Below are positions 48,553-59,593 of a stretch of 64,000 nucleotides of DNA, piece after piece (the first letter of the stretch is position 1; every line of letters starts with the position of its first letter). The notes under the pieces are model-generated. The model was not told the origin of the DNA, did not search any database, and worked only from the letters and a program-made list of their open reading frames with translations. The DNA is from an uncultured Candidatus Saccharibacteria bacterium (GTDB lineage Bacteria; Patescibacteriota; Minisyncoccia; UBA6257; GWB1-50-10): contig CAZGHF010000001.1 in assembly GCA_964525595.1 (NCBI GenBank), positions 29,509 to 93,508 on the forward strand, read 5' to 3'. The position numbers and the translations under genes were made by a program.

Positions 48553-49068
48553 TCAGGTTTTTACCATGACAAAACCGATTATTTTTCTTGCTCCAGATTT
48601 TTTTAAGACCCTCACAGCCTCTTTCATCGTCGCGCCGGAAGTGAAGACGTCGTCAACGAGAATTATATTTCTTCCGGCAATAAGCGCCGGATTTTTTATT
48701 CCAAAACAACCTGCCACGTTTTTTTCTCTCTCTTTATAGTTCTTGGTTTTTATCTGCGGATTTGTTTTCTTTGTTCTTATAAGATTGTCTTCGTGGATTT
48801 TAATTTTTAGCTCATCGCTTACGATTCTTGCGATTAGCGCTGCCTGATTGAAACCGCGCTCCCTCTCTTTTTTGGCGTGGAGAGGGACGGGGATGATAAT
48901 AAAAATAGAATTTTGAATTTCTTTTGTTTTGATTACCTTTTTAAGGTAACTTTTCACGATTTTGGAGAGCGGTTCGAGAGCCGTTCTGATTCTCTGGTAT
49001 TTTAAGGCGTGAACCAGTTCTTTTACCACCGGGATTCTGCAGAAAGAAGAGGCGGGAAGAAAAAACAT
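48553..49068 (-). CDS. comF: ComF family protein (phosphoribosyltransferase domain, competence-associated)
   Basis: C-terminal PRTase motif [15 protein letters not shown]. 171 aa, short form. Confidence 0.65.
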
Positions 49069-49300
49069 GATAGCTTAATCGCAGTTATACGCGATTTTAG
49101 TATGGAGACAGCTCTATGGAGGACAGACAAAACCGCTTCTTATTTCGATTAAAGCTTCGCAACTGCTGCAAAGTGCACCACTCGCGATTCGCCTTCGGCA
49201 ACCGACGCAGAGTGGCGGGAAGAGAACCAAAAACAATTGTTTTAGAAAAGAATGATAGTTCATTATCTTATTCTATTCCTCGTGCTAGAATATAGAAACA

Positions 49301-50395
49301 ATGAACTTGGATTTCTTTGGTTTTTTTAAAGATATCGCCAATTTTTTGAAGGCAGGTTCGGTTTTAGGGGTTGATATCGGCACTACCTCCATAAAGATGG
49401 CGGAAGTGTCGAGAAAAGGCGCCAATTTCAAGCTTGTAAATTACGGGGTACTGGAGACGAAAAAATATATCGAGCATCCGAATCAGGCCATCCAGACCGG
49501 CTCTTTGGAAATAGTTGAAAAAGAAGCAGTAAACCTCCTCAACGTTCTTTTGAATGAAGTAAAGCCGAAGAGTAAAACCGTCCTCGTTTCAATTCCGGTC
49601 TTTTCGTCCTTTATCGTTCCTCTTGACATGCCGCTTCTTTCAGCTCAGGAAACCGAAAAATCTGTGAGTTTTCAAGCTAAGAAATACATTCCCTTGCCAC
49701 AGAGCGCCGTTTCCCACGACTGGATTAAGGTTGATGAATTTGAAAATAACAAGGGGGTGAAATTCCAGAGACTGCTATTAATAGGTATTCCTTCAAGTGT
49801 AATTAAGAAATACAAAGGAATCTTCAAAACTGTTGGCTTGCGTCTCGTTACTCTTGAACTTGAAACGCTTGCTCTTGCCCGCGCTCTCGGAAATTTCAGC
49901 GAACCAACTCTTGTTGTTGATATCGGAGGCGAATCTACGAGCATCAATGTCATTGAGGGGAGTCTTGTCAAGCATTCATCTGTGAGCGATTATGGCGGTA
50001 TTCATCTTACGCAGGCCTTGTCGCGAGGTTTAGGCTTAAGCGTCTTAAGGGCTGAAGAACTGAAACGCCGAAGAGGTCTTATGGGGAAAGAAGGAGAAAG
50101 CGAGTTATCAACATTAATTCTGCCGTTTTTAGATGTTATAATACAAGAAACGAGATATGCACGGGATTCTTACGAGCGCCGTTACGGTAAGAAGGTGGAA
50201 AAATTAATGCTTGTTGGCGGCGGTGCAAACCTTTTAGGTATTAACAAATATTTTGGCAGTCAGATGAATTTACCAACTATTGAACCGGCGACTTTGAATG
50301 GTTTTGAATATAATCCTGATTTGGAGCTTGTCACCAGATACCTTAAAAATGAATTACCGGTCGCAATAGGTCTCGCCAAAAGATATTTTATTTAG
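49301..50395 (+). CDS. pilM: type IV pilus assembly protein PilM (actin-like ATPase fold)
   Basis: VLGVDIGTTSIKMAEV N-terminus and VVDIGGESTSI second ATPase motif. 364 aa. Confidence 0.8.
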   Translation: MNLDFFGFFKDIANFLKAGSVLGVDIGTTSIKMAEVSRKGANFKLVNYGVLETKKYIEHPNQAIQTGSLEIVEKEAVNLLNVLLNEVKPKSKTVLVSIPVFSSFIVPLDMPLLSAQETEKSVSFQAKKYIPLPQSAVSHDWIKVDEFENNKGVKFQRLLLIGIPSSVIKKYKGIFKTVGLRLVTLELETLALARALGNFSEPTLVVDIGGESTSINVIEGSLVKHSSVSDYGGIHLTQALSRGLGLSVLRAEELKRRRGLMGKEGESELSTLILPFLDVIIQETRYARDSYERRYGKKVEKLMLVGGGANLLGINKYFGSQMNLPTIEPATLNGFEYNPDLELVTRYLKNELPVAIGLAKRYFI

Positions 50396-50398
50396 AAG

Positions 50399-50962
50399 AT
50401 GCCCGACATACATTCCCAGCCAAATTTAAGCAACCAATTTGCCTCTGATACAATCCAGATAGGTTTTCCATGGCGGCTTTTCATTTTTTCCTCCGCTCTT
50501 TTCCTCTTTTCCCTTTTTGTTTTCTTTGGTCTCAGGTTTGGCTACATCGCCTACATTGATGGGAGGGCCGAGGATCTCGACCGAAAAATCGAAGACTTAG
50601 CCCAGCAGGTAACCCGGGAAGACCAGCAAAGCTTTATTGGTTTTTATTCTCAACTTGTGAATCTTGAGAAAGTTTTAGGTCGTCATGGATTTTCGGCAAA
50701 CGTCTTCACTTTCATCGAACGAAACACACTTGGCGAGGTTTATTATAAAGAAGCTGAGTTTTCTGCCCCGGACAAAAGTATTGATCTGAGCGGCGTCACC
50801 ACTTCAAATGGAACGCTGGTTAACCAACTTTCTTTACTCGATAATCGGGAAGAAGTAAACCGCGTGATTCTTAACCGGATGAATGCTGAAGAAGCCGGCG
50901 GTGTTGCTTTTAACATCACCATCTTTTTTGAAGGAGATTTTTTTCAAAAACCCACACTATAA
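50399..50962 (+). CDS. pilN: PilN-like pilus assembly protein
   Basis: Single TM helix then coiled coil. Position after pilM. Confidence 0.55.
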   Translation: MPDIHSQPNLSNQFASDTIQIGFPWRLFIFSSALFLFSLFVFFGLRFGYIAYIDGRAEDLDRKIEDLAQQVTREDQQSFIGFYSQLVNLEKVLGRHGFSANVFTFIERNTLGEVYYKEAEFSAPDKSIDLSGVTTSNGTLVNQLSLLDNREEVNRVILNRMNAEEAGGVAFNITIFFEGDFFQKPTL

Positions 50963-50978
50963 GACCATAAGATAAGAC

Positions 50979-58059: not shown

Positions 58060-58075
58060 TTTTGAATCATGAACT

Positions 58076-58591
58076 ATGAATAATAAATTAAGAATAAAGG
58101 ATAGAAAGGGGAATTTGCTTATTGAATCAATTGTAGCCATAAGTGTTATAATCATCAGTTTTTTGGGGATTTTGAGTCTTCTGTCGCGTTCGCTCGGTCT
58201 TAATAAAGATGTGAGTCATAAATTCGTTGCTACCTATCTTGCGGTCGAGGGGGTTGAAATAGTCAAAAGCTTGATTGATAAAAATTTTACCGACGGGCTT
58301 GCCTGGAATGATTGCTGTTCGGACGGCAGTTGGGAAGTGGTTTATGACAGCACCATTCTTATTCCGGCTTCAGTGCCTCCGAACCCTCTTCTTTTTGACA
58401 AAACTGATGGAAGCTACAATTACGTGACAGGCAATCCATCATCCTTTACGAGAGTTGTCGAAATTTCAGAGCTTGACCGGAATGGCGATGATCGAACTGA
58501 TGAAATAAAAGTTAATTCCAAGGTTAGCTGGTCAAGGCGTGGCAGTGTCCAGGAAATTAACTTAGAGGACCATTTTTTTGACTGGAAATGA
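58076..58591 (+). CDS. minor pilin-like protein
   Basis: N-terminus ...RKG/NLLIESIVAISVIIISFLGILSLL has Gly then a hydrophobic helix with Glu at +5. Confidence 0.5.
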   Translation: MNNKLRIKDRKGNLLIESIVAISVIIISFLGILSLLSRSLGLNKDVSHKFVATYLAVEGVEIVKSLIDKNFTDGLAWNDCCSDGSWEVVYDSTILIPASVPPNPLLFDKTDGSYNYVTGNPSSFTRVVEISELDRNGDDRTDEIKVNSKVSWSRRGSVQEINLEDHFFDWK

Positions 58592-59166
58592 TGTTTGGAG
58601 ATTCAATAGGAATTAAAAATTCGAGACAAGGCTTCACGCTTGCTGAGCTTATAGTTGCCATGTCCGTATTTATCGTTGCGATGATAATTGTTGTCGGTTC
58701 TTTTATAAGAGTTATTCGAACTCAGCGGGCAGTAAACAACCTGCTTTCTATGAACTCGAATATGAGTTTGGTAATTGAACTGATAACCCGGGATATAAGA
58801 ACCGGTTATAACTTCAGTTTAAACAGCCTGCCCGGAGGCAGCTGTATCGGCAGTCAGGTTGAAGAGCTTGAATTTACGAATACTCGTTTTAACAGCGTTT
58901 TCTACCATGACGAGGGCGGGGCGGTTGTCCGCCGGGAATGCGCGGGTGAGGACTGTACCGGCAAGGATTTCGAAGCGCTAACTGCCTCAAATGTGAACAT
59001 TGAACGTCTTTGTTTTTTAAACACCGGGAATCTTGAAAACGGGAAGGATCCCTGGCGGATTACACTTTTCTTTAAAGTCGGTTCTGCCGATTTAGTGCTC
59101 TCCAGTCAGGTTATTGATCTCCAAACAACCATTGCCGCTCGAATTACCCCTCAAGAAACCGAATAA
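58588..59166 (+). CDS. minor pilin (PilV/FimT-like)
   Basis: SRQG/FTLAELIVAMSVFIVAMIIVVGSF. Overlaps the previous gene by 4 nt. Confidence 0.6.
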   Translation: MMFGDSIGIKNSRQGFTLAELIVAMSVFIVAMIIVVGSFIRVIRTQRAVNNLLSMNSNMSLVIELITRDIRTGYNFSLNSLPGGSCIGSQVEELEFTNTRFNSVFYHDEGGAVVRRECAGEDCTGKDFEALTASNVNIERLCFLNTGNLENGKDPWRITLFFKVGSADLVLSSQVIDLQTTIAARITPQETE

Positions 59167-59176
59167 TTAACCAATT

Positions 59177-59593
59177 ATGAAAAGAGCCACCTCATTTAAA
59201 AGAGAAAGAAACGGACTCGCCTTATTGAAGCGAGAGCGGAGCGGGCAAATAATGATTTTGAGTGTGGTGATTTTGGGCGGAGTTCTGCTCTCGACCGGAG
59301 CCATTGCTGGTCTCCTTACCGTTTATCAAATTCGAGCTTCTAATGATGCGGTAAATTCCGCTAAAGCGGTTTTCGCTGCCGACGCCGGTATTGAGGCAGC
59401 CAGCTGGTGCCTTTTTAAAGATTGTTCTCCTTACAGTTCTTCTGATTTGCCGCCAGTCGATTTTGATGACAGCGGTGTTTCTTTTGAGGCTAGTTCTGAG
59501 ATTACTGAAACGGATGTAACGATTACTTCAAAGGGTTTTGCCGCCGACGGGCAAATAATAAGAATTTTGGAGACGATTTTCATTATTCAGTAA
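59177..59593 (+). CDS. pilus-associated membrane-anchored protein (PilX-like, tentative)
   Basis: One N-terminal TM helix ([23 protein letters not shown]), 138 aa. Last gene of the pilus cluster. Confidence 0.35.

Follow-up and report, generated by a model that had tools for sequence, protein, structure and literature searches.

In the stretch of DNA analyzed here, a window of 64,000 nucleotides (nt) from contig CAZGHF010000001.1 of assembly GCA_964525595.1, we find a compact gene block that is predicted to encode a complete type IVa pilus (T4aP)-like machine with both of its motor ATPases. The block is a plus-strand run extending from 49301 to 63412, with intergenic gaps of −4 to 122 nt, and upstream of it lies a minus-strand open reading frame (ORF; 48553–49068) of the ComF family. 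The pilus genes are, in order, pilM, pilN, pilO, a gene for a small membrane protein that we call orf96, pilB, pilT, pilC, a major prepilin gene (pilA), pilD and four minor-pilin-like genes (mp1–mp4), after which come the genes for an NAD-dependent DNA ligase (ligA) and for GatC and GatA. An earlier note, made from the sequence and its ORF translations, had proposed this list as far as the ligase, and it proved correct: every ORF boundary named there is present in an ORF map of 46–64 kb, and all but three of the genes gave a family match in Pfam and NCBIfam scans of the window ORFs, on which the family assignments given here are based.

Both ATPases anticipated by that note are present. The extension ATPase gene pilB (51955–53685) codes for a T2SSE domain (PF00437, E = 9.9e-121) together with an MshEN N-terminal domain, and its product displays the Walker A and B motifs, the Asp and His boxes and a tetra-cysteine motif; its match to the NCBIfam type_IV_pilB model (TIGR02538) has an E-value of 6.4e-150 and a score of 500 bits, under the equivalog cutoff of 675. 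The retraction ATPase gene pilT (53703–54773) matches TIGR01420 at 3.4e-132 (440.8 bits against a cutoff of 319.1), and its product likewise has Walker A and B motifs and Asp and His boxes, as well as the AIRNLIRE signature at residue 293. The platform protein encoded by pilC (54812–56017) has two T2SSF domains (PF00482, 4.2e-56), and PilD (56531–57439), a bifunctional prepilin peptidase and N-methylase, combines A24_N_bact (PF06750, 1.1e-23) and Peptidase_A24 (PF01478, 3e-11) domains and carries the GMGDVK motif plus a CxxC...CxxC pair. Hence, the features that define a type IVa system, namely a PilB-type ATPase, a PilT with AIRNLIRE, a two-domain PilC, an A24 peptidase and class III signal peptides, are all found at this locus.

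The alignment proteins are encoded at the head of the run. The product of pilM (49301–50395) is an actin-like cytoplasmic alignment protein (PF11104, 2.6e-27) that exceeds the NCBIfam cutoff of TIGR01175 (137.8 bits against 133), and that of pilO (50979–51539) exceeds the Pfam gathering score of PF04350 (2.9e-6; 27.9 bits against 22). Between them, the pilN candidate (50399–50962) codes for a bitopic protein with an N-terminal transmembrane helix that has no match at E ≤ 0.01 and yields only a weak match to PF05137 (E = 0.016) at lenient thresholds; 13 of 17 orthologues match the same family, with a best E-value of 3.3e-4, and the slot between pilM and pilO is kept in 17 loci. Searched against PDB sequences, profiles of PilN and of the minor pilins gave matches to the N-terminal helix or none.

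The fourth gene of this group, orf96 (51542–51832), codes for a small, bitopic membrane protein whose family has no name, with a conserved MAIVVEEEKK N-terminus, a single transmembrane helix, a YxLFF(K)KPE segment and a C-terminus with an invariant GRxNPF, mostly extended to GRxNPFxPF. It has no cysteine and is not a lipoprotein, and searches of Pfam, NCBIfam and PDB sequences returned no relative. Orthologues are conserved in 16 of the related loci described below (among L005–L022). A word-indexed search recovered 37 clusters, all of about 96 amino acids (aa), the named ones annotated as hypothetical and assigned to Jorgensenbacteria, Brennerbacteria and Paceibacterota. When 1.84 billion representatives (50% clustering) were searched with a profile, 400 sequences were recovered at E ≤ 1e-3, almost all of 94–104 aa. 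Lying between pilO and pilB, orf96 is found where pilMNOPQ operons have pilP. An identification with PilP was rejected because no Pfam, NCBIfam or PDB relationship joins the two, and the analogy is one of position; from that position we infer that the protein is probably an extra subunit of the alignment complex.

The major prepilin (56078–56485, with a TTG start) is a 135-aa protein with an N_methyl match (PF07963, 7e-8), a 10-residue leader, MKNKIVKEEG/FTLVEM (the slash marks the processing site), and a C-terminal cysteine pair, C113...C134. Downstream of pilD, N_methyl matches were obtained for two of the four pilin-like ORFs (57526–59593). The processing-site glycine followed by a glutamate at position 5 of the mature protein (Glu5) is present in PilA, mp1, mp2 and mp3. 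The first minor pilin, mp1 (57526–58059; G/YTLIE), matches PF07963 at 1.6e-4, shows weak, N-terminal-only matches to GspH/PpdA-type families and lies in the GspH/FimU slot by position. The second, mp2 (58076–58591; G/NLLIE), had no family match in the scans and is placed in the GspI/PilV slot by position only; its G12 and E17, the −1 glycine and +5 glutamate, are invariant in 16 orthologues. Structure prediction of the minor pilins, which the earlier note had recommended as a check, was informative for the other two. An AlphaFold2 model of mp3 (58588–59166; G/FTLAE), built from a homologue alignment, reached a pLDDT (predicted local distance difference test) of 82.2 and predicts a GspJ/PilW-class fold, and the corresponding model of mp4 (59177–59593; G/QIMIL; pLDDT 87.8) predicts a minimal minor-pilin fold in a protein that lacks Glu5 and sits in the GspK/PilX slot by position. 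The invariant G-Q of mp4 is followed by a hydrophobic helix; GspK and PilX likewise lack Glu5. A Foldseek search of the mp4 model against the PDB gave nothing significant, and the pseudopilins GspJ, GspK and GspI of type II secretion systems (T2SS) are among the structures that mp3 and mp4 match best. With the weak GspH/PpdA-type matches of mp1, the four genes may be read as an H-I-J-K series like that of the T2SS and T4aP priming complexes, the J assignment alone being firm. Public gene calls start mp4 at an internal methionine, giving a product of 113 aa that misses the conserved G/Q leader region; the longer ORF of 138 aa is backed by conservation upstream of that methionine.

A search with a back-translated PilB sequence, taking one genome per species, found the nearest relatives among Candidatus Jorgensenbacteria metagenome-assembled genomes, at 69–88% identity (76–88% for the nearest), followed by Liptonbacteria and Patescibacteria, which points to a Jorgensenbacteria-like member of the Candidate Phyla Radiation (CPR) as the source of this DNA. 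In tblastn comparisons with the fetched loci, a single gene order was seen in all 18 loci whose PilB is at least 54% identical (54–88%), as far as the contigs reach: comF on the opposite strand, then pilM-pilN-pilO-orf96-pilB-pilT-pilC-pilA-pilD-mp1-mp2-mp3-mp4-ligA-gatC-gatA, 17 genes in all, with one or two copies of the major prepilin gene in the relatives. Loci with more distant PilB proteins are without this order. The conservation of the block in 18 loci indicates that every ORF in it, including the three that have no family match, is a real conserved gene. At its left edge, comF stands head-to-head with pilM wherever a related locus reaches across the junction (16 of 16), including loci that carry other genes on the far side of comF. 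At its right edge, ligA (59601–61634) begins after a 7-nt gap from the last pilin gene and is followed by gatC (61644–61928) and gatA (62042–63412, with the start called in public assemblies, which differs from the longest-ORF start); the last pilin gene and ligA-gatC-gatA are kept together as faithfully as comF and pilM. Hence, that two genes are neighbors in these small genomes does not specifically point to a shared function.

Two further observations concern the pilB and pilC genes. In one relative a second, divergent pilB-pilC pair (L019:224–3278; 34% and 29% identical to the respective proteins of the window) lies about 3 kb upstream of the comF-pil block, indicating that some relatives have two type IV filament systems. 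Within the window, an exact 19-nt repeat, ATTTAAGAATTTTAATAAA, occurs at 51929–51947 and 54787–54805, ending 7 nt before the start of pilB and 6 nt before that of pilC (two matches against 0.12 expected), as part of a 36-nt repeat that is 81% identical. A role as a regulatory element was considered and rejected, as the repeat is conserved in no related locus; a scan for promoters and terminators gave counts equal to the shuffled expectation and was uninformative.

The earlier note had also reported that the window lacks PilQ and PilP, and this is borne out: neither a secretin nor PilP, ComEC, DprA or ComEA was found in the 58 window ORFs scanned or among the genes on about 10 kb of downstream sequence. 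Near-identical (sibling) contigs occur in the Logan assemblies of SRR8482193–98, in ENA ERZ23486238 and in NCBI GCA_004196315.1. The downstream sequence, taken from sibling contigs, codes for an NTP transferase, a tRNA-synt_2d (PheRS-type) synthetase, RecG, a PolyA_pol/CCA-type nucleotidyltransferase, a dUTPase, CorA, TruB and a spermidine synthase. The window scans likewise gave no match to GspC, GspD, GspL or GspM.

The comF gene lies on the minus strand beside pilM and belongs to the ComF family, as the earlier note had it, but it is not intact. Its reading frame (48553–49263, minus strand) spans 711 nt, the length of the intact 236-codon gene of the sibling contigs, and the open part (48553–49068) covers only 171 aa with the phosphoribosyltransferase (PRTase) domain, matching TIGR00201 at 4.6e-26 over model positions 43–190 of 190. 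Translation of the same frame upstream reads MNYHSF...CVGCRRRIASGALCSSC...FVCPP, a stop, SCLHTKIAYNCD, a second stop, and AIMFF..., so that the zinc-ribbon N-terminus, starting at 49263, is present but is split from the PRTase ORF by a TAG at 49116–49114 (codon 50) and a TAA at 49077–49075 (codon 63). Both stops arise in an aberrant block of 86 nt (49034–49119), in which 31 positions are substituted and none is inserted or deleted by comparison with four public copies; the block also ruins the second CxxC/C-H motif of the zinc ribbon. Outside this block the window comF is identical to that of the sibling contigs L001 and L003, whose comF is intact (236 aa, with a DZR_2 zinc ribbon and a Pribosyltran domain) and covers positions 1–190 of TIGR00201 with 101.8 bits against a curated cutoff of 233.6. 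A search of the metagenome collection with a pattern of the two flanks separated by any 86 nt found two further copies, both of the intact allele. One, SDBT01299069.1, belongs to the metagenome assembly GCA_004196315.1, in which a different part of the window is matched by a contig at 100% identity; the second comes from a JGI sample and represents a strain of about 97% identity. The ComF proteins of the relatives are intact in 16 of 16 cases and keep the CPxCG...CH...LAAA.Y motifs lost here. Thus, comFC is intact in the natural population and broken in this window, from which the uninterrupted ORF of zinc ribbon and PRTase that marks a ComFC is missing.

Over about 45 kb compared, the window and its sibling contigs differ by isolated single-nucleotide polymorphisms, 0–5 per contig, and the comF block is the sole dense patch. 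Its substitutions are spread over the three codon positions as 12/12/7, with 10 transitions to 21 transversions, the pattern expected of unselected, uniformly random change. Several origins were considered and rejected. The action of a diversity-generating retroelement does not fit substitutions at all four bases rather than at A only, and no reverse transcriptase is found in the window; an inversion or a shuffle does not fit a block that is colinear with the intact allele at 64% identity and differs from it in base composition; gene conversion from a paralogue would need a second comF copy, and none was found in the window; and a diverged functional allele is at odds with the stops, the lost conserved Cys and His residues, the codon-position spread and the ratio of transitions to transversions. 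The block may be a variant that truly exists in this strain or an artefact of the assembly or the sequence, and the sequence by itself is compatible with either.

Set against characterized systems, the locus most resembles the T4P (type IV pilus) clusters of other CPR bacteria. In the passages of PMC6744442, PMC9894109 and PMC10633639 that deal with them, these clusters comprise the same PilB, PilT, PilC, PilM, PilN, PilO, PilD and pilins, co-localized and without PilQ, in small genomes, with com genes regarded as partners; in particular, PilB, PilT, PilC, PilM, PilN, PilO and PilD are described as co-localized in many CPR genomes (Meheust et al. 2019, PMC6744442), and PilQ as not found across the CPR in the same source. 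The instance here differs in being Jorgensenbacteria-like (Paceibacteria) rather than saccharibacterial, and those passages do not mention the fixed block from comF to gatCA seen in 18 loci or the 96-aa GRxNPF protein.

Diderm T4aP systems (the pilMNOPQ, pilBCD, pilT and fimU-pilVWX genes of Pseudomonas and Myxococcus) share the same families, the same M-N-O-(P slot) and H-I-J-K-like orders, the AIRNLIRE of PilT, and a pilin with a short leader, F+1, E+5 and a C-terminal disulfide pair. Unlike them, the present locus has no PilQ, PilP, TsaP or PilY1, neither the PilQ secretin nor the PilP lipoprotein being found in the window ORFs or about 10 kb downstream; its genes are all fused in one operon, and orf96, which has no lipobox or beta-sandwich domain, stands in the place of PilP. 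The monoderm T4aP of the Firmicutes (the Streptococcus sanguinis pil locus and the Clostridium T4P) are likewise secretin-less and have PilM, PilN and PilO, PilT, a prepilin peptidase and several minor pilins; the PDB entries used for this comparison are 7o5y and 7b7p. Structurally, mp4 comes closest to PilA of S. sanguinis, and for mp3 there is a match to the pilin module of PilB from that species; sequence identity is low, at 10–20% in the structural alignments. In contrast to the S. sanguinis proteins, the minor pilins here are small and single-module, with no adhesin module of the kind found in its PilB or PilC, and orf96 is extra. The ComG pseudopilus (ComGA–GG and ComC of Bacillus and Streptococcus) is also a secretin-less filament of single-membrane cells, with a link to ComFC, ComEC and DprA in the literature. 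However, ComG systems are without PilT and PilMNO, both of which are present here, and the scores to ComGA (244.8 bits; cutoff 300) and ComGB (163.6 bits; cutoff 240) lie far below those of PilB and of GspE (488 bits) and of PilC and GspF (353 bits), so that a ComG-type motor and platform is not what the locus encodes. Finally, the sibling ComFC allele, whose best hit is TIGR00201, has the same architecture as the ComFC of H. pylori and B. subtilis (Damke et al. 2022, cited in PMC10633639), an N-terminal CxxC zinc ribbon with a C-terminal PRTase fold, from which it differs in its sub-cutoff score and the window frame in its two stops within the zinc-ribbon region.

Taken together, the region is very probably the chromosomal T4a-like pilus operon of a Jorgensenbacteria-like CPR bacterium (Patescibacteria, Paceibacteria), specifying a retractile pilus in a cell with a single-membrane envelope and no secretin. 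The designation of a CPR-type secretin-less pilus in the earlier note stands for the DNA available, whereas the competence function attached to it is only a possibility. The gene identities, the motifs, the predicted folds of mp3 and mp4 and the conservation of the block are direct results of the analysis; the manner of assembly, the type of envelope and the biological role are deduced. In the mechanism that we envisage from what is established for these protein families, PilD would cut the short leader at G/F and N-methylate the five pilins; the four minor pilins, in H-I-J-K order, would form a priming and tip complex on PilC; and a frame of PilM, PilN and PilO, to which the orf96 product in the pilP slot would add a subunit, would hold the PilC platform with the priming complex. 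PilB would then polymerize the 135-aa major pilin and PilT depolymerize it, the fibre crossing the wall directly, as in monoderm T4aP. Several points weigh against this interpretation. PilB, judged by its score below the NCBIfam equivalog cutoff, appears to be a divergent member of its family; the identity of PilN leans on weak matches; the assignments of mp1 and mp2 follow only from their position and signal peptide; the negative result for a secretin and PilP is confined to the window ORFs and about 10 kb downstream; the pilus is predicted from its genes; and its biological role is carried over from a different CPR class, the Saccharibacteria.

As to that role, attachment to a host or surface together with twitching is the most likely primary function by analogy with cultured Saccharibacteria, and capturing DNA from the surroundings to supply a ComEC/ComFC/DprA pathway is a plausible second one. 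T4P-driven twitching and host binding have been described in a Saccharibacterium (Xie et al. 2022, PMC9894109), where the T4P serve host attachment as well. In the Saccharibacteria, the one CPR group to have been studied by genetics, comEC is dispensable for growth, as comF and dprA are also dispensable, and the T4P genes are essential (Wang et al. 2023, PMC10633639), an essentiality concluded there to be unrelated to competence. By analogy, this makes attachment and motility a better-supported primary role than DNA capture. The same work reports comEC-dependent natural transformation in the Saccharibacteria, and PMC6744442 describes ComEC in 86% of CPR genomes, widespread DprA and ComFC, and CPR bacteria without nucleotide synthesis; with the presence of PilT and the invariable head-to-head placement of comF and pilM, these points favor a dedicated competence pilus, mainly capturing DNA, coupled to the divergent comFC and perhaps to ligA, and feeding a ComEC encoded elsewhere. 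The earlier note had drawn this conclusion from the co-occurrence of PilB, PilT and ComF. The data do not support that argument in this form, in that the window comF is broken by two stops, the ligA-gatCA adjacency is as conserved as that of comF and renders the synteny unspecific, the machine is T4aP-like and not ComG-like, and the main role of the saccharibacterial T4P is not competence; moreover, ComEC, DprA and ComEA were not found in the window or about 10 kb downstream. We therefore regard a dedicated competence pilus as unlikely, if still a contender. A T2SS-like pseudopilus that exports proteins in place of forming a surface pilus is far less credible, and we give it hardly any weight. 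PilB and PilC do score almost as high to GspE and GspF, and the closest structures to mp3 and mp4 include T2SS pseudopilins; but GspHIJK-like minor pilins are common to T4aP systems too, the PilT with its AIRNLIRE passes the PilT/PilU cutoff, PilM_2, PilN and PilO stand in place of GspL, GspM and GspC, and no GspD secretin is found among the window ORFs. A T2SS, by comparison, would have GspD with GspC, GspL and GspM and no retraction ATPase.

The lesion in comF bears on a further alternative, that it is a real pseudogenization and that the pil locus, or at least its link with competence, is decaying in this strain. The two in-frame stops and the loss of conserved Cys and His residues would be expected of such decay. 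On the other hand, every pil gene is intact and 99.97–100% identical to the sibling contigs; the 31 substitutions, packed into 86 nt with no indels, look like uniform random substitution; the lesion is absent from the four public copies, including SDBT01299069.1 and that of the strain of about 97% identity; and no entry in the public gene collection corresponds exactly to the truncated product. The dense, random-like substitutions and their absence from public copies fit an artefact or an alteration of the sequence better than natural decay, which we consider very unlikely. Until the 86-nt block is checked against the reads, this copy of comF is unsuitable as evidence for competence. A bolder combination is that orf96 encodes an unrecognized, lineage-wide subunit of secretin-less CPR pili that takes the position of PilP beside PilN and PilO and, at the same time, that the block of comFC, pil genes and ligA is a genuine supra-operon for DNA uptake and processing rather than inherited synteny; that both should hold seems to us improbable.

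Secretin-less, co-localized T4P genes together with com genes in the CPR are already known from the passages cited above. The additions made here are modest: the fixed 17-gene block in this clade, a predicted GspJ-class and a predicted Glu5-less minor pilin, an unnamed 96-aa family and the anomalous comF block. They leave the current understanding of type IV filaments unchanged, and provide a further well-resolved case of the T4a-like pilus without a secretin that is already regarded as a CPR hallmark, accompanied by 18 relatives in synteny and in this instance from the Paceibacteria, a class without cultured members. The compact H-I-J-K-like set and its 96-aa partner could guide the annotation of pilus operons in the CPR; in public gene calls, mp4 is cut short and the proteins concerned are entered as hypothetical.

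The window otherwise contains only housekeeping genes, with 15 scattered tRNAs, a DUF5667 protein and an H+-pyrophosphatase, a content typical of the CPR. The gene for the DUF5667-domain protein (12417–13724) includes three tandem 69-nt units, 97–100% identical, at 13136–13342, and a sibling contig stops inside this array. Among the tRNAs, that at 6921–6995 is a tRNA-Ile with the anticodon TAT (UAU), an uncommon bacterial means of reading AUA, and the last 20 nt of a tRNA-Leu(TAG) (2344–2363) are exactly repeated 318 nt downstream (2662–2681) in the manner of an att site, which could be an integration remnant. A 30-nt inverted repeat (37964–37993 and 39779–39808; 97% complementary) encloses 1.8 kb with five tRNA genes and a gene for an undecaprenyl-diphosphate synthase. 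Lastly, two small paralogous ORFs in opposite orientation (27398–27634 and 30800–31034), AbrB/SpoVT-like in appearance, bracket M16 peptidase, AI-2E and TatD genes; they share an inverted repeat of 47 nt and 83% identity (27478–27524 and 30888–30934), and the perfect palindromes beside them (27398–27441 and 30995–31034) have in common GTTGCCC...GGGCAAC and are possibly operator sites.

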